NCBI GenBank assembly: GCA_002840305.1
Contig: PHAI01000003.1
Location: 6,908-70,907 of the forward strand
From: Candidatus Falkowbacteria bacterium HGW-Falkowbacteria-1
GTDB taxonomy: Bacteria > Patescibacteriota > Patescibacteriia > Patescibacteriales > UBA12465
Length of the DNA: 64,000 nucleotides
Direction: 5' to 3'
The number at the start of each line of letters is the position of its first letter. The first letter of the stretch is position 1. Under the pieces are notes generated by a model that saw only the letters and a list, made by a program, of their open reading frames with translations, was not told the DNA's origin and did not search any database. The position numbers and the translations under genes were made by a program. Positions 1 through 13,482 of this stretch are shown here, piece by piece.

Positions 1-329
1 GAGAAAATTTCTTCAAAGCGACTGATGATAACCCTATATATAGCCTGGGCCTTTACTCTTTCTTTTATGCTATATATGAATATTTCTCTATTTTTATCCG
101 GATTGCTCTTTTTGGGAATAAAAATATTTAAAGCTGGATCAATTTCCTTAAAACTTTTTATTTCTTCTATAATCTGCCAAATCAAATCGTTTAAAGTAAG
201 ATCAAAAGAAGGGATGTTCAAGCCATCCAATCCACTGTAAACATTATTTTTACCATCAAGATAAAAACCGCTCAAAACCTCGAGATAGGCTTCTTTTATG
301 TTTTTTGCTGATGTTATTTTATCAAACAT
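1..329 (-). CDS. Reverse transcriptase, N-terminal 109 aa only (gene runs off the left edge of the window)
   Basis: Absent from the supplied ORF track because it is truncated. Manual minus-strand translation from the ATG at 329..327 gives MFDKITSAKNIKEAYLEVLSGFYLDGKNNVYSGLDGLNIPSFDLTLNDLIWQIIEEIKSFKEIDPALNIFIPKKSNPDKNREIFIYSIKERVKAQAIYRVIISRFEEIF, with no stop before position 1. The GxDG segment followed by IPKK..R.I....KERVxAQA...FE resembles RT motifs 0 and 1 of group-II-like, DGR and defence RTs. The catalytic YxDD motif would lie outside the window. Confidence 0.6.
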   Translation of the reverse strand, partial: MFDKITSAKNIKEAYLEVLSGFYLDGKNNVYSGLDGLNIPSFDLTLNDLIWQIIEEIKSFKEIDPALNIFIPKKSNPDKNREIFIYSIKERVKAQAIYRVIISRFEEIF

Positions 330-338
330 TGAAATAAT

Positions 339-508
339 AAAAATTACCCTCAATATTCTCAGCGACAAAAATCACCAAGAATTAATTATAATTTTAATTG
401 ATACCCCCTCCACTTAATCGTGACATAACCAATTTTCATATCCGGTATTATCGGAATAGACAAAATAATTGATTTTTAATACCTAAAAAAGTTTTGAGGG
501 TAATTTTT
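339..508 (-). repeat. 15-bp perfect inverted repeat bracketing ~140 nt of non-coding sequence directly upstream of the RT start (candidate structured ncRNA or leader)
   Basis: aaaaattaccctcaa at 339-353 is the exact reverse complement of ttgagggtaattttt at 494-508. The proximal arm ends 10 nt before the RT ATG. All six frames of the enclosed segment contain stops. Confidence 0.7.
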
Positions 509-523
509 TAATTATCTGATTAG

Positions 524-552
524 ATTATAATAATAAGTAAGCAAAAAGTCAA
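524..552 (-). promoter_or_regulatory. Sigma70-type consensus promoter driving the IR-bracketed segment and the RT gene
   Basis: The minus strand reads TTGACT (552..547), a 17-nt spacer, then TATAAT (529..524). The predicted start lies ~10 nt upstream of the distal IR arm. Confidence 0.6.
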
Positions 553-617
553 AAAACAAGAATGTAATTTAGAATTAATTTAATATACTTTTAAAAACTT
601 TACTTTATAATTTCCGG

Positions 618-1481
618 ATGAAGCTCAATTGTAAGAAGAATAAAATAATACTTTTTGTCTCTACGTTATCGTTGTTATGCGTTTATTTTTTTTGGTCTTA
701 CTATTCATTTAGAGAAAATAGAAATTTAAAAGTTTATTTCCTCGACGTTGGGCAAGGCGACGCAATTTTTATCCAAACCCCCAATAAACAAAATATTATC
801 ATTGACATGGGAAGCGAAAAAGGAGTGAAAGAATTAAATAAAATAATTCCCTGGTGGAGCAAAAACATAGATATGGCAATTATAACTCACCCCCACGACG
901 ATCATATCGCTGGCTTTCCCTTACTCATCAAAAAATATAAAATAAAAAAAATAATCTTTACTGGGGCATCCTATTCTTCACCTCTATACCAAGAAGTGCT
1001 TAAAATTATTGATGAAAAAAATTTAAACCTGTTGATTCCTCAACCCGAACAAAATATAAAGATTGACGAAAATTGTTATTTAAAATTTCTATTCCCAATC
1101 GATAGCATGGCCGGGAAAGAAATGGAAAGCTTAAATAATTCCTCAATTGTTATTCAGCTTATATGTAAAAATTCAATATTTTTATTCACTGGGGACGCCG
1201 AAGAAGAAATTGAAAAGAAAATATTAGAAAAAAATTATGATTTAAAAAGCGACGTTTTAAAAGTTGGGCATCACGGATCAATTAGTTCTACTAATCAAGA
1301 ATTTCTAAACAAAATTGATCCAAAAATAGCCATAATAATGGTTGGAAAAAATAATAAATTTAATCACCCCAGCCTTAGAACAATTAATAAGCTAAAAAAA
1401 ATCGGAGCAGAAACCTTCCGCACCGATCTAAACGGTAATATTTTGATAATAAGCAATGGCGAGAAAATATACAAAAAATAA
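618..1481 (+). CDS. ComEC/Rec2-related metallo-beta-lactamase domain protein with an N-terminal membrane anchor (MBL domain only, no competence channel domain)
   Basis: Diagnostic segments are VYFLDVGQGDAIFIQTP, ITHPHDDHIAGF, LKVGHHGS and FNHP. A single hydrophobic helix sits at residues ~10-28. Confidence 0.85.
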   Translation: MKLNCKKNKIILFVSTLSLLCVYFFWSYYSFRENRNLKVYFLDVGQGDAIFIQTPNKQNIIIDMGSEKGVKELNKIIPWWSKNIDMAIITHPHDDHIAGFPLLIKKYKIKKIIFTGASYSSPLYQEVLKIIDEKNLNLLIPQPEQNIKIDENCYLKFLFPIDSMAGKEMESLNNSSIVIQLICKNSIFLFTGDAEEEIEKKILEKNYDLKSDVLKVGHHGSISSTNQEFLNKIDPKIAIIMVGKNNKFNHPSLRTINKLKKIGAETFRTDLNGNILIISNGEKIYKK

Positions 1482-1484
1482 ATA

Positions 1485-2765
1485 CTAACTAGAAAATATT
1501 TTGTTTGATAATAAATTTTTGGCCGTATCAACACTAATGACTCCCCTGTTTGCCAGATCTTTGATACTTCTCTCGAAGCTAATCATGCCTTCGCTAGATT
1601 GAGTTTCTAGAACGCTTTTTATCTGCGCTATTTTTTGTTCTCTTATTAAATTAGAAACAGCTGAATTATTAAGCAATACCTCTCTTACTGCCACTCTTCC
1701 ACCGTTAGTATCTGGGACTAAAACCTGTGAAATAACGGCTGACAAAATTAAAGACAACTGAGACTTGATTTGATTTTGTTGGTGTGGTGGAAAAATATCA
1801 ATAATTCTATCTATAGTTTGAGAAGCGCTACAAGTATGGAGCGTTGCTAAAACCAAATGACCGGTTTCGGCTAAGGTTACAGCCGTTGAAATAGTTTCCA
1901 AATCTCTCATTTCTCCAACCATGATAACATTTGGATCTTGCCTTAAGACATAGCGCAACCCACTCGCAAAAGACGGCATATCAGTTCCTAATTGTCTTTG
2001 ACTAATAATACTCTTTTTAGGACTAAAAACAAATTCTATGGGATCTTCGAACGTTATTATATTACAACTTCTATGACTATTTATATAATCTACCATAGCG
2101 GCTAAAGAGGTAGACTTTCCAGAGCCAGTTGGCCCAGTCAAAAGAATTAATCCTTGACTTAAATTTAATAAATCATAAACACGCCTAGGCATGTCCAACC
2201 CCTCCATCGTAGGAAGGTCTTCTTTGATAATTCTAGCTGTCATTTTTATATTTCCCTTCTCAAAAGATAGGTTGGTTCTAAATCTGAAATTTTCAAATTG
2301 ATAAGAAAAATCCAAATCTTTCTTTCTGTAAAATCTTTCTAATTGTTCGGCACCCAAAATATGTTTAATGGCTATTTGTAATTGCTTATTGGTAACTACT
2401 CTCAAGTCATAGGACTCCAACACGGAGTTAATCGAAGACGAAGGTTTCTTTAGGCTGTCACCGCTTACCAACTCATCATCTTCTGATAAAAAATATTTAT
2501 CAACGGAGTTACCAGTGTCTTCATAAGAGTCTTCGGCGACAGCATTAATTAATCCCTCCTGATTCAGAGTCGACTCAAGATTGTTGCTTTGTTCAAAACC
2601 GGGAATAGAAAAATTAGCATTATCTTTGAAGCCAGATTCGGGAATAAATTTATCAATAGAAACAAGAGTCCCATTTATTCTAATTATCGGACTCAAACCA
2701 TTCATTAAATGGATGTCAGAAGCCCCCTGGCTTACTGCAATTCTAAAAATTTCTTTTATATCCAT
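1485..2765 (-). CDS. pilT: Type IV pilus retraction ATPase PilT-like, with a ~90-aa acidic/Ser-rich insertion
   Basis: The N-terminus has ASDIHL..G..P..RINGTL. It carries Walker A GPTGSGKST, Asp box ITFEDPIEF, LRQDPNVIMVGEMRD and His box TGHLVLATLHT. Confidence 0.85.
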   Translation of the reverse strand: MDIKEIFRIAVSQGASDIHLMNGLSPIIRINGTLVSIDKFIPESGFKDNANFSIPGFEQSNNLESTLNQEGLINAVAEDSYEDTGNSVDKYFLSEDDELVSGDSLKKPSSSINSVLESYDLRVVTNKQLQIAIKHILGAEQLERFYRKKDLDFSYQFENFRFRTNLSFEKGNIKMTARIIKEDLPTMEGLDMPRRVYDLLNLSQGLILLTGPTGSGKSTSLAAMVDYINSHRSCNIITFEDPIEFVFSPKKSIISQRQLGTDMPSFASGLRYVLRQDPNVIMVGEMRDLETISTAVTLAETGHLVLATLHTCSASQTIDRIIDIFPPHQQNQIKSQLSLILSAVISQVLVPDTNGGRVAVREVLLNNSAVSNLIREQKIAQIKSVLETQSSEGMISFERSIKDLANRGVISVDTAKNLLSNKIFSS

Positions 2766-2778
2766 ATAGGTATATTGA

Positions 2779-3471
2779 TTACCAATTTTTTAATGTTAAG
2801 CCTTTTTCAGCGGCGTCAACTTGCGCTTCTTGCTTAGAACTACCAAATCCCATTGAAACCATTTCTTCTTCTAAAAACAAACCAACTGTAAATTTTTTAT
2901 CATGATCAGGACCCTCTTCTTTTAAAACCTTATAAACAGGGGTAATGCTGGCCTTTTCTTGTGATGATTCTTGAAATCTCGACTTGGGGTCCAAATAAGA
3001 TTTACTCTCTATTATATCTTTTAAATTAAAGACTATATTTTTAAACACGAAATCTTTTGATTTTTCGATACCTTGATCAAGATAAATGGCCCCTATTATA
3101 GCTTCGATCGAATTAGCCAAAATATATTGACGAGCTTTTGAATTTTTATCCTTGGCCTCGCCCTTAGAGAGGAGAATAAATTCTTCTACTCCCAAATCTT
3201 TAGCAACTTGATAAAGCATTTTAGAATTAACCAAGCTAGCTCGCCAATTAGTTAAGTCACCCTCTGGATTATTTGGGAAGTTTATAAAAAGATATTCTGT
3301 TATAATTATTTCGAGTACCGCATCTCCTAAAAACTCCAACCTCTCATTATGACCAAGATGAAAATCATGGTTCTCATTCAAATAAGATCTATGTATAAGA
3401 GCTTGCTGCAGTAAATTTTTGTTATCAAAAAAAACACCAATTTTCTCTTCCAAATCTTTTAGCTTTGACAT
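2779..3471 (-). CDS. rnc: Ribonuclease III
   Basis: The signature NERLEFLGDAVLE is present, with a C-terminal dsRBD (GPDHDKKF...GSSKQEAQVDAAEKGL). Confidence 0.95.
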   Translation of the reverse strand: MSKLKDLEEKIGVFFDNKNLLQQALIHRSYLNENHDFHLGHNERLEFLGDAVLEIIITEYLFINFPNNPEGDLTNWRASLVNSKMLYQVAKDLGVEEFILLSKGEAKDKNSKARQYILANSIEAIIGAIYLDQGIEKSKDFVFKNIVFNLKDIIESKSYLDPKSRFQESSQEKASITPVYKVLKEEGPDHDKKFTVGLFLEEEMVSMGFGSSKQEAQVDAAEKGLTLKNW

Positions 3472-3606
3472 AAAAAGAAAATTATAAATTTCAAATTTTA
3501 ACTAATTATTTTCTATTGTTAAAAAATAAACAAATTATACTTTAACAAAATTTAAAATTTGGAACTTATAATTTAAAATTAAAATATTAATAAAAATCTT
3601 AAAAAT

Positions 3607-4113
3607 TTATTTCTCCTCGCTCGCCACAACTGACTCTTCTTCTTTGTTTTCTTTTTTGTTCTCTTTTTTCTCAGAATTTTTCTCTCTCTTTAACTTTTCC
3701 TCTTCTGGCATATTTGAATAAACTGCGCCCAAAACTCCATTTATAAATTTTCCCGAAGCTTCTCCCCCAAAATTTTTAGCGACCTCAATAGCTTCATTAA
3801 TAGCAACTTTAGGGGGGACGCTAGAACCAACTGCCAGTTCATAAATACCCAAACGCAAAACATTTCTGTCCACAATGCTTATCTGTTCTATAGGCCATTC
3901 TGTTGCATATTTTTTTATATAAGAATCTATAAGCTCAATATTTTCAAGAACGCCATTGGCCAAAGAACTAGTAAATCCTTGATCATCAAAATCTGGAGCA
4001 AAATCATCAAAATTTTTGCTAATCACTTCTCCGATATTTTTTCGACCATCATTAAAATCCCACTCAAACAAAGACTGTATAGCGATTGTCCTTGATAAAT
4101 GCCTGTTAGCCAT
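3607..4113 (-). CDS. nusB: Transcription antitermination factor NusB with a K/E-rich C-terminal tail
   Basis: [20 protein letters not shown]... and [13 protein letters not shown]...[17 protein letters not shown] are typical of NusB. The start was moved to the internal Met at 4113 (track ORF starts at 4143). Confidence 0.85.
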
Positions 4114-4164
4114 AAGATTATCTTTAATTAAAACAAAGCACAAAAGTGCTTTATTTTTTATATT

Positions 4165-4362
4165 TTATTTCTTGTTTTTTACCTTATTTTCAACTTTTAA
4201 AACAGCTTTGCCCTTGTAAGTTCCACAGAAAGAACAGGCAATATGCGGCCTTACTGCTTGACCACATTTTGGACAAGAACCTAAGGTTTGTTTTTTTAAA
4301 GAATGGTGAGATCTTTGCTGTTTAGTAGATGAACTCGTTTTTCTCTTTTTTGGTACTGACAT
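4165..4362 (-). CDS. rpmF: 50S ribosomal protein L32
   Basis: The sequence is MSVPKKRKTSSSTKQQRSHHSL...CPKCGQ...HIACSFCGTYKGK, with the zinc-ribbon type CxxC...CxxC. Confidence 0.9.
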   Translation of the reverse strand: MSVPKKRKTSSSTKQQRSHHSLKKQTLGSCPKCGQAVRPHIACSFCGTYKGKAVLKVENKVKNKK

Positions 4363-4450
4363 AAATATGTTTAGTAAATTTATAAATTTAAATTTCTGAT
4401 TTTATATTATATTTTATAAAATTATTTGTCAATAAGAATGAATTCTAAAA

Positions 4451-6745
4451 CTACCTATAAATCAATATATTATGAAAACCAACGGCTATGGCCAACTCCG
4501 CATTAAATGAGATATCGATAGCTGACCATTGAGAAGCTTTGGCGGAAGAATCTACTGTCCACGAATCACCGAAGTCATCGGATACAAAGACTTCGCCATG
4601 AGACAATGCCATCATCTTTGATCCATCACCAGAAACAGAACAATAATACAACTCATTAATGTCCAAAGCATCGGAAGTGGTCCAACTCTCGCCGTAATCA
4701 TTTGAAATTTTAAGAGAGGTTCCAGCAGTAACCAAAATTCTTTGTCCATTATCAGACATCCCCACCCTGGCCATATTGGTATTTATTTGTCCGGCCGAAG
4801 TTTTAGCTTCCCAGGTTTGACCAAAGTCATTTGATATATAAACATAATCCCATCTAGCAACCGTTACCAGCGTTTGTCCGTTGGATGAAGACGCTATAGA
4901 AAACCACTCTCTTGAACCAACATCGGAATTTTCTGTCCAGTTTTGCCCATAGTCGGAAGAGGTATAAATATATCCGTTATAAACAACAGCCGCCAACTTA
5001 CTGCCATCAGCCGAAGAAGACACAGAGTACCAATTTCTTATCCCGGAAGAACTTTGTTCTGTCCAAGTTTGGCCTGAATCTGAAGACGTATAAATATAAC
5101 CACCTTCAACCACGGCTGATAAATAAGTTCCATCATCGGAAGAGCTTATGCCACGCCAATTTCTAGAACCAGCCGAAAATCTTTGAATCCAGGTTTCGCC
5201 ATAATCCGATGAAGTATAAATATATCCATTATAAACAGACGCCACTAATTTTTGCCCACTGCCAGAGGAAGAGGCAGTAAGCCAGGCTTTTCCGCCCACA
5301 TCCAATTTTTCTGACCAAGACTGACCAGCATCAGCGGAAACATTAATATATCCAGCGGTAGAAAAAATTTTTTGTCCATCATCAGAAAAGGCCACGCTAT
5401 TCCAGGCTCTAGTCCCGGTTGAAGTTTGAGCTGTCCAGGTTTGTCCATAATCGGAAGAAGTATAGGCATAATTATTATAAACCACAGCCACCATTCTTTG
5501 TCCATCATCAGAACAATCAACCGATCGCCAGGCTCTTGAAGATGCTCTCTGCGTCCAACTTCCACCAAAGTCATTTGAGACATAAATATATCCAGTAGAG
5601 GCCACTGCTACCAGTATTTGCCCGTTAGCCGAGGAGGCTATTGATCTCCAACCCCTGGATCCAGCCGAAACTCTTTCTGTCCAGTTTTGACCATAATCCG
5701 AAGAAGTATATATATAACCATAATTTTCAACAGCTGCTAAATTTTGTCCATCGGATGAAGAAGCTACTGAAAACCAAACCCTAGCACCAGAAGAAATTTG
5801 TTCAGTCCATGTCTGACCGTAGTCAGAAGATGTGTAGAGATAACCACCATTATAATCATTTTGATCAGCGGCCACCAGTCTCTGCCCATCGGATGAAGAA
5901 GCGACGGCGTACCAAAATCTTTTTCCAGCAGAAGTTTGTGCCGTCCAAGTTTGACCTGAATCAGAAGAAGTATGAATATAGCCACCACTATCAGTACCAT
6001 TATCAACCACGGCCAATCTCTGACCATCGGCCGAGGAAACAATTGAATACCAATAACCAAAGCCAATGGAACTATTTTCTGTCCAAGTTTGACCAGAATC
6101 AAAAGACCTATAAATATACCCACCACTAGGAGCGGCATACACTTTTGTACCGTCAGATGATGAGTTTATTGAACTCCAACCAAAATATGGCCAAGCCGGT
6201 CCGGACACATCTGAGCTAGCGACAATCCTCCAAGATTTTTCCTCTTCCTCGGCTTGATTCTCTTGATTACTATCAAAAGCAATTATTCCTCCGGGGGTCA
6301 TTTGTTTTGCTCCTTCTGGCATGTCTGATATTTGTTTGCCTGTACAGAAGTCTATGGTGTAACTAGCTCCACTATTTTGGGGTGTGTAGGTGTAAGTATT
6401 AGAAGCGGACAAACAGTCTCCGTCGGCAGGAGATGGAGCAATAGGAATGTTGTACATAAATACTTCTCCCGTAGAAGAAGATACTATAGAACCGCTTTCC
6501 CACTCTTCTGTCGTTGGATATCTACCATTTTCATTATAAAATAATTCTAAAGCGGTTTGAGTTTGTTTCATATCAGCTAAGCGCTTGCTATCGCGAGCTC
6601 TAGATCTGGCTTGTTGAAGGGCTACCACAGCTAAAGTAGCAAGAATTCCTATAATGGCTATTACTACTAATAATTCGATTAACGTAAAGCCACGTAAAAA
6701 CGCTTCGCGTTCACGTGGCAAGGCTTTTTGTTTTATTTTAAACAT
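4451..6745 (-). CDS. Type IV pilin-like protein (prepilin N-terminal methylation motif) fused to ~13 BNR/Asp-box repeats (beta-propeller)
   Basis: The leader ends ...[28 protein letters not shown]. It is followed by 13 copies of a ~43-aa unit containing SxDxGxTW (for example [14 protein letters not shown]). Confidence 0.8.
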
Positions 6746-11476: not shown

Positions 11477-11595
11477 AGATTTAAAGTATAAAAAAAGTAT
11501 AAGAAAAATTTATCTTAATGATAACAAGTACATGATATAATAAAAAAAAATGAAAGTCCATTTCTTTCAAATAAACCAGTTATTAAATATTTGAT

Positions 11596-12312
11596 ATGTC
11601 TTACAAAATAAAAAATTCAAACATTATAGTCAACCGTAATAAAAAATACAGCATAACAACAGTACGAGACAGGGAAAAGAATGATAGGCCGAGAGAAAAA
11701 ATGTTGAGGCTCGGAGCCGAAACACTCTCTTCGCCCGAGCTTTTAGCTATTATTCTAAATACCGGAACAAAAAAAGAAGAAGTTATAAATATGGCCGATC
11801 GCATCCTCAAGGAATACGGAAAAAATTCGATTATCAATGAAAAAAACCCAAACAATCTTGAAAAAGAATTTGGTTTACCAATAGTAAAATCTTGCCAAAT
11901 AGTAGCCTGTTTTGAATTGGGAAAAAGATTTTTCAAAAAAGAAGGGCTTGAAACAACAACTATCAGGAATGCCAAACAGGCCTTTGACCATCTAAAAGAT
12001 ATGGGCAAACTGAATAAAGAACATTTTCGAGGTCTTTATTTAAACAGCAGATACAAACTAATTCATAGCGAAATAATATCCATGGGCACTCTTGATACTG
12101 GCATTATACATCCAAGAGAAGTTTTTAGACCAGCCCTAGAATATTCCTCTAGTGCCATAATTATAGCTCATAACCACCCATCAGGGATATTAAAAGCCAG
12201 TAGCGAAGATTTGGAAGTAAACAAAAAACTTAACGAAGCGGGAAGAATTTTGGGGATTGAAATTTTAGATCATTTAATCATTTCTAAAAATAAATTTGTA
12301 AGTTTACTATAA
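11596..12312 (+). CDS. radC: RadC-like JAB-domain protein
   Basis: The N-terminal HhH segment reads PREKMLRLGAETLSSPELLAIIL. The C-terminal JAMM motif is IIAHNHPSG...S.ED. Confidence 0.9.
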   Translation: MSYKIKNSNIIVNRNKKYSITTVRDREKNDRPREKMLRLGAETLSSPELLAIILNTGTKKEEVINMADRILKEYGKNSIINEKNPNNLEKEFGLPIVKSCQIVACFELGKRFFKKEGLETTTIRNAKQAFDHLKDMGKLNKEHFRGLYLNSRYKLIHSEIISMGTLDTGIIHPREVFRPALEYSSSAIIIAHNHPSGILKASSEDLEVNKKLNEAGRILGIEILDHLIISKNKFVSLL

Positions 12313-12548
12313 TGAATGAAAAAAAATATAAAATAAAAAATAATACTCTGATAATAAGAGATCGAAAAAGCGCCAAGACACACATCAAACAGGGCGATTA
12401 TTTTGGCACTATAGCTACCATTTTGAATCTTCTAAGCCAAGACAAATTTATAAAAAATACGAAAGAGCTCAAAAAATATCTAAAAAAAATAAGCAAAGAA
12501 CTTGAATATTTGCAAAAAAATTTTGACATAAAAAAAAGCCTTAAGTGA
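12312..12548 (+). CDS. Hypothetical small protein (start overlaps the radC stop, TAATG)
   Basis: This is an ORF only, with translational coupling to radC. No motif was recognised. Confidence 0.4.
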   Translation: MNEKKYKIKNNTLIIRDRKSAKTHIKQGDYFGTIATILNLLSQDKFIKNTKELKKYLKKISKELEYLQKNFDIKKSLK

Positions 12549-12562
12549 AATCCTAAGGCTTT
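12529..12562 (-). terminator. Rho-independent terminator for the 12595..13482 gene
   Basis: The 8-bp stem aagcctta / taaggctt is followed on the minus strand by T8. It overlaps the 3' end of the convergent small ORF. Confidence 0.8.
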
Positions 12563-12594
12563 ACGAAATATTTTGAAACGTTTAGCTGTAATGC

Positions 12595-13482
12595 CTAACG
12601 TTTTTGTTTTTCCAAAAAAGCTAAATGCGAATCAATCGCTTCGGCCAGCTCTATTGGATTAATTTTAGAAGGTGAAAAAACCGGACTCTTTCTGCTCCCT
12701 CGGCAAAACAATCTCCCATCAGGATGAGCAAACCATTTTTCTCCATCTCCGATTTCTTCGCCATGAGACAAAACAAATTGACGAACGAATCCATCATCAG
12801 CTTTAAAATCATCTCCCCTGGTTAAAATTCCCATATTAAATTCATCTACATAAATAACCGCTTTAAAACCATGCTTGTTTAAAAGACTGCTGTTTATGCG
12901 AACTTTGGGATTCCTGTTCAAGGCAACTTTACCGAAAACCTCAATTGATTTTTCAGTATTTTCTCTTTCCTTCCGAAATGAGACCTCCAGGTTTAAATAA
13001 TTATCGAGATTATCAAAAAATCTTGAACAAATCTCATGATCATTATACCTAGTGTGATAACCATGTAAAACGGTCAACAGGCCAACAAAAGAAAAAAAAG
13101 TTAACTTGTTTTTTTCAGGGACGTCCATGTCCCGCCAAAACTCAACCCCATCAGAATCGTGACCATCAATAAAGCGAGCCAAGGGACCCAAAACCTCTTT
13201 TTCCTCATTTTGAAGATAGGTTTTTTTAAAAAGAGCCATGAAACAAGATCCGGCTTTACCGTTTCTTCTTTTGTTACCCTTTATCCCTTTTCCACCAGCA
13301 TTAATGTCTAAAGCATAATCTCCCTTTTCCATTTCTTTGCCGTCCCAATTTGCAGGTTTAAAAATGATGTCGACCTCTTTTTCAGTTTTGCCCAAGATAA
13401 ACCTAAGCGTAAACCAAGCAGAAGCCGCCGCATCAATATCTACCGATATGTGCGTAAAGACTTTTGTCCTTTTTCCTTCCAT
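12595..13482 (-). CDS. Hypothetical protein, possibly a remote DHH/MYG1-like phosphoesterase
   Basis: This is a long clean ORF with its own terminator. THISVDIDAAAS, ALDINAGG and IDGHDSDG loosely resemble DHH motifs I-III, but the match is weak. Confidence 0.55.
   Translation of the reverse strand: MEGKRTKVFTHISVDIDAAASAWFTLRFILGKTEKEVDIIFKPANWDGKEMEKGDYALDINAGGKGIKGNKRRNGKAGSCFMALFKKTYLQNEEKEVLGPLARFIDGHDSDGVEFWRDMDVPEKNKLTFFSFVGLLTVLHGYHTRYNDHEICSRFFDNLDNYLNLEVSFRKERENTEKSIEVFGKVALNRNPKVRINSSLLNKHGFKAVIYVDEFNMGILTRGDDFKADDGFVRQFVLSHGEEIGDGEKWFAHPDGRLFCRGSRKSPVFSPSKINPIELAEAIDSHLAFLEKQKR

Follow-up and report, generated by a model that had tools for sequence, protein, structure and literature searches.

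What does the truncated reverse transcriptase (RT) gene at the left edge of a 64,000-nucleotide stretch of DNA from Candidatus Falkowbacteria bacterium HGW-Falkowbacteria-1 (hereafter the window) work on, and to which kind of RT system does it belong? The initial annotation, made from the letters of the window, had read positions 1-552 as the beginning of a stand-alone RT preceded by a promoter-driven template or guide RNA bracketed by an inverted repeat, with retrons, defence RTs and diversity-generating retroelements (DGRs) as possible relatives. Following the locus beyond the window revealed a four-part operon cut by the window's left edge, the 5' end of which is the minus strand of window 1-552. 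It consists, in this order, of its own promoter, a structured RNA of ~180 nt, an RT of 406 amino acids (CVU82_03210), a 566-amino-acid protein with the fold of an ABC exporter and a 403-amino-acid membrane-anchored protein with tandem PLD domains. This anatomy and the partnership of RNA and RT are held with high confidence. At all levels of divergence sampled, the RNA is found together with an intact group II-like RT, and both are locked to the two membrane proteins. A domesticated RT with a dedicated non-coding RNA and effector genes is a known kind of system; the lineage, the RNA and the partners are new.

A word-index protein search with the 109-amino-acid RT fragment of the window yielded no match, and the first 50 nt of the window had no exact match in the genome and metagenome contig collections. 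The full locus was reached via the neighbouring 287-amino-acid protein with metallo-beta-lactamase (MBL) fold (window 618-1481), which led to the source contig ENA k141_93771 (568 kb; Candidatus Falkowbacteria bacterium HGW-Falkowbacteria-1). This contig is 100% identical with the window over 620 nt, and an excerpt of it is referred to as L001. The reading frame 329..1 on the minus strand is stop-free, encodes 109 amino acids with the N-terminus MFDKITSAKNIKEAYLEV, matches the generic RT model of PADLOC (E=1.3e-7, profile positions 2-100) and the group II RT/maturase model TIGR04416 (E=7.9e-5), and equals residues 1-109 of CVU82_03210 at 100% identity, so that its initial reading as an RT N-terminus was correct. 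Effector genes had been expected past the window edge and were found there as the ABC-like and the PLD gene. The RT, the 566- and the 403-amino-acid open reading frames (ORFs) all lie on the minus strand and each overlaps the next; the operon spans about 4.3 kb, all of it defined in sequence. In the window its 5' end comprises the following features.

1..329, minus strand: N-terminal part of the RT, the remainder lying past the window's left edge (L001 9712..8492; family alignment A2)
334..513, minus strand: structured non-coding RNA of ~180 nt (covariance model R1, 83 bits, E=6e-20)
524..552, minus strand: sigma-70-type promoter TTGACT-N17-TATAAT with 11/12 matches, which would drive the RNA-RT operon

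The RT family is small and sharply bounded. Among 5.8 billion proteins it is represented by 79 clusters (90% identity), and E-values fall from 1e-63 straight to 1e-21, where the next database relatives, maturase-domain proteins of introns, begin. With the 109-amino-acid fragment 48 proteins were found in a library of representatives at 50% identity, and a scan of one genome per species (185,579 species genomes) yielded 57 loci. In all loci with sufficient flanking sequence, tblastn detected homologues of the 566- and the 403-amino-acid proteins immediately downstream of the RT gene, over RT identities from 64% to 34%; in the most distant locus, L061 (28% RT identity), both partner genes lie upstream on the other strand. 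The ORFs of RT and ABC-like protein overlap in 56 of 57 loci and those of ABC-like protein and PLD in 57 of 57, which implies translational coupling. A second complete cassette (locus L062, RT identity 47%) occurs ~100 kb away on the same Falkowbacteria contig and has its own copy of the RNA (127 bits). Two other metagenome-assembled genomes (MAGs) also contain two loci each, so that a genome may hold up to two divergent cassettes.

The organism names given by the sources are Patescibacteria lineages or unclassified bacteria, with one exception, the ABC-like homologue P0146 (Sphaerochaetaceae). Many cassette-bearing MAG records (L006, L007, L009, L012 and others) are titled 'uncultured Gammaproteobacteria bacterium'. 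As the same cassette genes otherwise occur in records labelled Patescibacteria, both labels are probably placeholders or the result of mis-binning. The operon is restricted to Patescibacteria, the candidate phyla radiation (CPR).

Between the RT gene and its divergent neighbour the promoter proposed at 552..524 was found again as the best-scoring site within window 1-1600, although promoter-like sites in these 1600 nt are overall not above chance (7 found, 8.9 expected). The same arrangement, TTGACT-N16/17-TATA(A/C)T, stands equally far from the RNA in the sister loci L005, L006 and L007, and in most loci a -10 element is located 8-27 nt upstream of the RNA. With the -10 element ending at 524, transcription is predicted to start near 517, which is ~8-9 nt before the distal arm of the inverted repeat and close to the ~10 nt estimated at the outset. 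No terminator was found between RNA and RT.

The inverted repeat itself proved to be as described. AAAAATTACCCTCAA (339-353) pairs perfectly over 15 bp with TTGAGGGTAATTTTT (494-508), the arms enclose 140 nt, and the non-coding nature of this interior is borne out by the lack of any ORF of more than 39 amino acids overlapping 330-617. When the 288-nt intergenic region was shuffled 2000 times with dinucleotides preserved, a repeat of 15 bp arose in only 4 cases, and the transcript 520..330 folds with an energy of -47 kcal/mol (z = -3.5). Simple searches upstream of homologous RTs located a long-range inverted repeat in the same place with different sequences; the sequence varies and the pairing is kept. 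The two arms of the inverted repeat form P1, the helix which closes a conserved pseudoknotted RNA; the elements of this RNA are given here in their 5' to 3' order.

496..509, minus strand: 5' arm of P1 (distal arm of the inverted repeat, 494-508)
491..495, minus strand: single-stranded AAAAC junction adjoining the P1 5' arm on its 3' side, conserved in all clades (alignments A6 and A10)
477..483, minus strand: 5' strand of the pseudoknot, GGUAUUA, pairing with 444-450
427..474, minus strand: P3, a long irregular hairpin, whose 7-nt apical loop 444-450 (UAAUACC) is the 3' strand of the pseudoknot
383..404, minus strand: P4-P5 junction, family consensus CCUCAUUGGAUUUAAUYAAU, boundaries set by eye
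355..382, minus strand: P5, a 3' hairpin of 11-12 bp, after which come AUU and the P1 3' arm
338..351, minus strand: 3' arm of P1 (proximal arm of the inverted repeat, 339-353), ending 9 nt before the AUG of the RT

The order is completed by a small hairpin P2 between AAAAC and the pseudoknot strand, a variable hairpin P4 between P3 and the junction, and CUU between P5 and the P1 3' arm. Across the family the RNA measures 180-260 nt and has five helices and the pseudoknot.

The support for this fold which is independent of any model comes from an alignment made with MAFFT, in which blocks of conservation stand out. On it RNAalifold predicted part of P1, the 7-bp helix and 8 bp of the 3' hairpin, with compensatory changes at 19 of 21 predicted pairs. 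The covariance model R1 was built from a seed of 29 sequences, and the alignment of 40 sequences fitted to it, which is biased towards its model, has 86% of cells paired as compared to 38-48% when the partners are slid by 1-3 columns. In this fitted alignment compensatory changes occur at 34 of 36 modelled pairs, and none of 500 shuffles matched the observed values; the covariation which the initial annotation had proposed to look for is thus present. Compensatory changes were seen at all 14 pairs of P1 and at 10 of 11 pairs of P5, which RNAalifold also recovered on the MAFFT alignment. For the pseudoknot helix, 95% of cells are paired in the fitted alignment, and in the structure-blind MAFFT alignment six of seven pairs carry compensatory changes, in 1-12 sequences each. 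P3 is supported by folding of the individual sequences and by noisy column counts: folded singly, its segment formed a hairpin presenting exactly the 7-nt loop in 32 of 40 family members. As this apical loop provides the 3' strand of the 7-bp helix, the helix is a pseudoknot between a loop and a single strand. The match at 334-513 on the minus strand is the sole one in the 64-kb window, and in other genomes the model locates the RNA right before the RT gene, in nearly all of the close loci and also in many distant ones outside the seed. Rfam 15 gave no credible match for the window RNA or two divergent homologues. The RNA is a new family.

The longest conserved single-stranded element of the RNA is the P4-P5 junction, which makes it a candidate template or protein-contact site. 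The segment CCUCAUUGGAUUUAAU of the RNA is named together with the conserved AAAAC. A few family members have a 5-nt direct repeat with a period of 13-14 in the junction. A telomerase- or DRT10-like A-B-A' template at this site was considered and rejected: a first shuffle test was mildly positive (3.85 vs 3.44), and two permutation tests which preserve the column composition showed no excess.

Retrons have an msr-msd RNA, bounded by an inverted repeat, just upstream of the RT. If the present RNA were such an msr-msd, branched multicopy single-stranded DNA (msDNA) would be primed from the 2'-OH of a guanosine next to the inverted repeat. The layout is alike, with promoter, RNA closed by an inverted repeat and RT on one strand and accessory genes downstream, and some sources name the homologues 'retron-type reverse transcriptase'. 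However, the P1 5' arm is followed by the conserved AAAAC and no conserved branching G, and the only match of the RT to retron models is PADLOC RT_II-A with E=1.5e-5 and 22 bits. In a search of protein structures the family profile reached retron Ec86 with 2e-6, as compared to 5e-33 for group II RTs. The retron analogy of the initial annotation was therefore abandoned, and a retron is considered extremely improbable.

A second alternative is that the RNA is a cis-acting 5' leader controlling the RT operon, for example by autoregulation of the RT, and no template, the RT then acting on other nucleic acids. Group II intron proteins autoregulate at DIVa, and these intron-encoded proteins (IEPs) bind the leader of their own mRNA. 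The closest relatives of the RT bind their own leader or, as G2L4, need no dedicated RNA, and G2L4 works on other nucleic acids in DNA repair. The P1 3' arm is purine-rich, by eye its end in the alignments stands 4-31 nt ahead of the start codon of the RT, no terminator separates RNA and RT, and no signature of a template was found. A motif resembling a Shine-Dalgarno (SD) sequence was observed within 30 nt of the start in only two of 35 long ORFs (window 618-63954), so that translation initiation in this genome seems to work largely without SD pairing. Sequestration of an SD sequence is therefore an unlikely purpose of P1, and this role of the helix was set aside. A simple leader also fits poorly with loci in which the RNA is duplicated or displaced. 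Tandem copies stand before one RT in L005 (5603-5779 and 5788-5997), L013 (5632-5801 and 5808-5999) and L021 (5519-5704 and 5822-6000); the copies differ from each other in the P4-P5 junction, and in L005 a single promoter is present, at the upstream copy. In L009 two pilin-like genes lie between RNA and RT. The tandem copies and this separation speak for an RNA that functions as a unit in its own right. Furthermore, an RNA of 180-260 nt with five helices and a pseudoknot, kept down to 34% RT identity, exceeds what a translational operator needs. All in all, a mere leader function appears quite unlikely.

With the complete gene available the RT could be classified. It matches Pfam RVT_1 above the cutoff (2.8e-13), the generic RT model of PADLOC (7.8e-39), UG26 (2.3e-37, ~127 bits), TIGR04416 (2e-36, 126 bits, which is below the equivalog cutoff of 300 bits), the RT-Cas1 model (7e-31), UG17 (4.5e-28) and Drt9 (9e-19). 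A similar pattern of hidden Markov model (HMM) scores was obtained for all 38 aligned family members, which all match UG26, UG17, UG4 and Drt9 with E ~1e-39 or weaker. The identity of the full ORF as an RT is thereby secured. For the YxDD active site, which the initial annotation had named as the feature to look for, the full protein has a variant. The catalytic aspartate triad D146, D231 and D232 is invariant in the 38 sequences, but the tyrosine is replaced and the site reads VGDD, within the invariant context R-V-G-D-D. In group II RTs R-Y-A-D-D is found at this position.

Searched against PDB, the family profile matched the group II intron RT GsI-IIC best (5e-33), followed by Cas6-RT-Cas1 (5e-29) and, far lower, by DRT9 (2.5e-13), DRT2 (8e-12), G2L4 (4e-9) and Ec86. 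An AlphaFold2 (AF2) model of the RT with a mean predicted local distance difference test score (pLDDT) of 92.7 had the full-length GsI-IIC RT as best Foldseek match (template modelling score 0.73-0.78), and G2L4, DRT9 and a DGR RT (8ub7, 7e-14) came next. By PDB profile and predicted fold the RT is closest to group II intron RTs, and by these scores its lineage appears to branch beside them and not within the UG/Abi or retron clades. It has the traits of the free-standing group II-like (G2L) RTs, namely group II intron RTs as nearest relatives and no intron ribozyme RNA around the ORF. The trait of the UG/Abi RTs (class 2 of the defence-associated RTs, DRTs), a dedicated structured non-coding RNA beside the RT, is present as well.

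This closeness to intron-encoded RTs, together with the resemblance of the fold to the DGR RT, brings up the possibility that the locus is a decayed group II intron or a DGR with the RNA as template repeat (TR). DGRs are the commonest RTs of CPR genomes (PMC8632793). No intron RNA was found in any Rfam search; in L001, L005 and L062 only rRNAs were detected. A mobile group II intron was rejected for the lack of ribozyme domains I-VI in Rfam and of space for them around the ORF: the gap upstream measures just 288 nt, and the 3' end of the RT gene is overlapped by the next gene. The worry of the initial annotation that the locus might be an intron fragment can accordingly be put aside. The analogy to DGRs was not sustained either. 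An adenine-tolerant scan for TR and variable repeat (VR) pairs in the 64-kb window, L001, L009 and L062 gave self-matches only, with no VR-like copy over 40 nt that reached 85% identity at non-A positions. The RNA has a conserved structure and is no copy of coding sequence, and the cassette has no Avd-like gene, its only partners being the ABC-like and PLD genes. A DGR or a decayed intron is thus hardly to be expected here.

Of the two partners, the 566-amino-acid protein has a weak match to Pfam ABC_tran. Compared to PDB, its family profile recognized both domains of type IV ABC exporters, the transmembrane one in TM288 and MsbA and the nucleotide-binding one in PCAT1, and its AF2 model (pLDDT 81.7) aligned over the full length to BmrCD, MsbA, HlyB, TM287/288, TAP, PCAT1 and PglK. 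It is thus a half-transporter by fold, with a six-helix transmembrane domain and a nucleotide-binding domain. Reading of the family consensus against the canonical motifs showed that GK(T/S) of Walker A and the aspartate of Walker B are kept, that an invariant D-N stands in place of D-E, i.e., the catalytic glutamate is changed to asparagine, and that the LSGGQ signature, the glutamine of the Q-loop and the histidine of the H-loop are missing. As the motifs for hydrolysis are absent, this exporter-fold protein cannot hydrolyse ATP by the usual mechanism and is probably a gated membrane element. The family is confined to this cassette (34 clusters; next match E=5e-7).

The 403-amino-acid protein matches PLDc_2 (5.8e-30) in two stretches, corresponding to two PLD domains. 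The first motif is canonical, HxK(x)4D...GSxN (MHHKFxIID...GSYNFT), and the second is in all members a variant, HxH(x)4D...GTNNWS, with H349, H351 and D356 invariant. Zucchini/MitoPLD, NucT and Nuc were found as matches in PDB, and the defence PLD models DrmC, DpdK and PbeA match as well. A single N-terminal hydrophobic transmembrane helix is present in 53 of 53 full-length homologues, and in 47 of these 53 the charge bias is of the N-in type, which places the PLD domains outside the cell. The PLD domains are therefore predicted, from sequence, to face outward.

What might such an ensemble do? The best overall explanation, with an evenly balanced chance of being right, is an RNA-templated, DRT-like defence module with membrane effectors. 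In this scheme the RT would bind the RNA that is made from the DNA immediately before its ORF and would copy part of it into cDNA, as in the RNA-dependent systems DRT2, DRT9 and DRT10 (PMC12632851, PMC9226505). The ribonucleoprotein or its cDNA would control both membrane proteins, which are translationally coupled. Of these, the ABC-like one would be an effector with exporter fold, gated by a nucleotide or a ligand, and not a pump, the PLD protein would be a nuclease effector, and the outcome would be abortive infection as a defence against phages or other mobile DNA. For its parts, use of the RNA as a template is slightly favoured over the contrary, and the role in defence, i.e., abortive infection against phages or other mobile DNA, is put forward tentatively, its probability falling a little short of even. 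Defence is the best-fitting role because of the patchy distribution, the paralogous diversification, the nuclease-type PLD and the precedents. In DRT2, DRT9 and DRT10 the non-coding RNA serves as cDNA template, and DRT10, in which a SLATT membrane effector accompanies RT and non-coding RNA, is a working precedent (PMC12632851).

Several observations weigh against this proposal. No template segment could be identified in the RNA, the test for A-B-A' being negative, and the RT has no member-level match to a UG or DRT model, since the ~127 bits for UG26 equal the generic and group II scores. PLD domains outside the cell are oddly placed for a nuclease that kills an infected cell or cuts injected DNA. 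Only one homologue was found in IMG/VR, which gives no link to mobile elements; a phage origin was rejected on the same count. No recognisable defence-island context was seen in the loci inspected, in the clade of the window the cassette is vertically conserved, with a ComEC-like MBL gene on one side and the 23S rRNA gene on the other, and in a subset of loci pilin-like genes directly upstream hint at a role at the cell surface.

The outward PLD, the lack of a defence island, the vertical conservation near rRNA genes and the upstream pilins keep alive a non-defence function in the envelope or in DNA uptake. The four-part module would then serve these episymbiotic CPR bacteria at the cell surface, in DNA uptake and nucleotide scavenging, or in lipid remodelling. 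The envelope would be the place of action of the exporter-fold protein and of the outward PLD, as a nuclease or an enzyme of phospholipid headgroups, with a nucleic-acid component provided or regulated by the RT-RNA particle. Lipid flippases (MsbA, ABCB4 and PglK) are among the nearest ABC structures, and pilin-like genes lie upstream on the same strand in L009, L016, L062, L065 and L067, the RNA of L009 even inside a pilin cluster. In the window a MBL protein resembling the C-terminal part of ComEC, a PilB/T-type ATPase and a 764-amino-acid pilin-like protein are neighbours of the cassette, synteny beside rRNA and housekeeping genes is stable in its clade, and two cassettes are retained in a very small genome. 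However, with the 79 clusters and 57 loci mentioned above the distribution is patchier than a core function would allow, most loci (about 40 of 55) lack a pilin gene within 6 kb, and an ABC fold without hydrolysis motifs cannot pump. We know of no envelope pathway that requires an RT. Such a cellular function is therefore rather doubtful, though better placed than the leader function of the RNA.

Comparably improbable is a function other than abortive infection and unlike that of any known RT system, with the RT-RNA particle wired to an ATPase-dead ABC fold and an outward nuclease-type PLD. It may take two forms, a membrane conduit gated by cDNA or nucleotides, or an RT-dependent function in envelope or DNA uptake tied to episymbiosis. 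If true, domesticated RTs would gain a new functional class, descended directly from a group II intron RT which took on a new, non-ribozyme RNA as partner.

The surroundings of the cassette add some observations. In L001 the PLD gene is followed on the same strand by rRNA genes (190-5227, minus strand) in the unusual order 23S (5227..2214), 5S (2085..1972) and 16S (1751..190). In the sister locus L005 (10468-13218) the 23S gene starts ~390 nt past the PLD gene, so that the cassette is located directly upstream of rRNA genes in the clade of the window. The divergent neighbour (window 618-1481, plus strand) is a membrane-anchored MBL-fold protein, which we read as similar to the ComEC C-terminus; it has a weak precomputed match to the anti-defence family Anti-Pycsar_Apyc1 (PF23023), and its gene adjoins the cassette in the closest clade only (L005-L008). 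The 764-amino-acid protein (window 4451-6745, minus strand) combines a type IV pilin N-terminus with about a dozen Asp-box/BNR-like repeats and is on record without a Pfam annotation.

Type IV pilin-like genes (GFTLIE motif or PF07963) were located upstream on the same strand in L009 (2794-5992), L016, L062 (5786-6817), L065 (6289-7803) and L067 (7397-7798). The motif scan counted 17 upstream on the same strand, one downstream and one upstream on the opposite strand; these are raw counts without background density. L009 has three paralogous pilin-like genes (2794-3798, 4070-5065 and 5093-5992) with near-identical N-terminal regions of ~150 amino acids and divergent C-terminal domains. The RNA copy of this locus (3805-3983) sits between the first and the second of them, and an adenine-tolerant comparison of this RNA with the three genes showed no TR/VR relation. 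The paralogous cassette in L062 has anaerobic ribonucleotide reductase genes upstream and a TraG/VirD4-like coupling protein (TrwB_AAD_bind; 11491-13371) downstream.

No description of the RT family, its RNA or the combination of RT, ABC and PLD was found in the searchable literature, Pfam, NCBIfam, PADLOC or Rfam, and a hydrolysis-dead ABC-exporter fold together with a membrane-anchored tandem PLD was not found with an RT in the searchable literature. The locus adds an RT lineage near group II intron RTs which has its own pseudoknotted RNA family absent from Rfam. To our knowledge little is known on immunity or RT biology of CPR bacteria beyond DGRs, and the tiny genomes of these organisms nevertheless retain up to two copies of the cassette. 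As a compact system fully defined in sequence it is amenable to synthesis and direct testing of RNA binding, cDNA products, toxicity and defence.

In domesticated bacterial RTs with dedicated non-coding RNAs (retrons, DRT2, DRT9 and DRT10) unexpected biochemistry has recently come to light, among it the synthesis of genes de novo, of homopolymers and of telomerase-like repeats. With retrons the present system shares the order of promoter, RNA closed by an inverted repeat, RT and effector genes, whereas its RT lies outside the retron clade, a conserved branching G after the 5' arm is lacking, and its RNA with pseudoknot and five helices differs from the msr-msd architecture. UG26, a UG/Abi class 2 RT, is the best UG-specific HMM match (E=2e-37, 127 bits), but with a score which equals those of the generic and group II models and is below member level. 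The published UG26 has 35 members, which are sometimes linked to a Vsr-like endonuclease, and no ABC, PLD or RNA is reported for it (PMC9226505).

In the DRT systems DRT10 (UG17 RT, non-coding RNA and SLATT), DRT9 (UG28) and DRT2 (UG2), as in the present one, a free-standing RT stands beside a dedicated multi-helix, stem-closed non-coding RNA. DRT10 also has a membrane protein as partner, and the RT is homologous to UG17 (E=4.5e-28), to Drt9 (E=9e-19) and to the DRT9 structure. It reaches no member-level score for UG17, UG28 or UG2, however, and is closer to group II intron RTs. Its RNA belongs to a different family, with a pseudoknot and no A-B-A' template pattern, its partners are an ABC-exporter-fold protein and a PLD instead of SLATT, the hosts are CPR bacteria, and defence is here a candidate role. 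The group II intron RTs, with GsI-IIC as the best full-length match in sequence and fold (~415 columns against chains of 415-419 residues), and the G2L RTs, which likewise are RTs without intron RNA, resemble the RT most. They differ from it in the active site, VGDD here as compared to YADD or YIDD. For G2L4 we know of no RNA partner; the RT described here has a dedicated structured RNA which is not an intron, and two obligate membrane partners.

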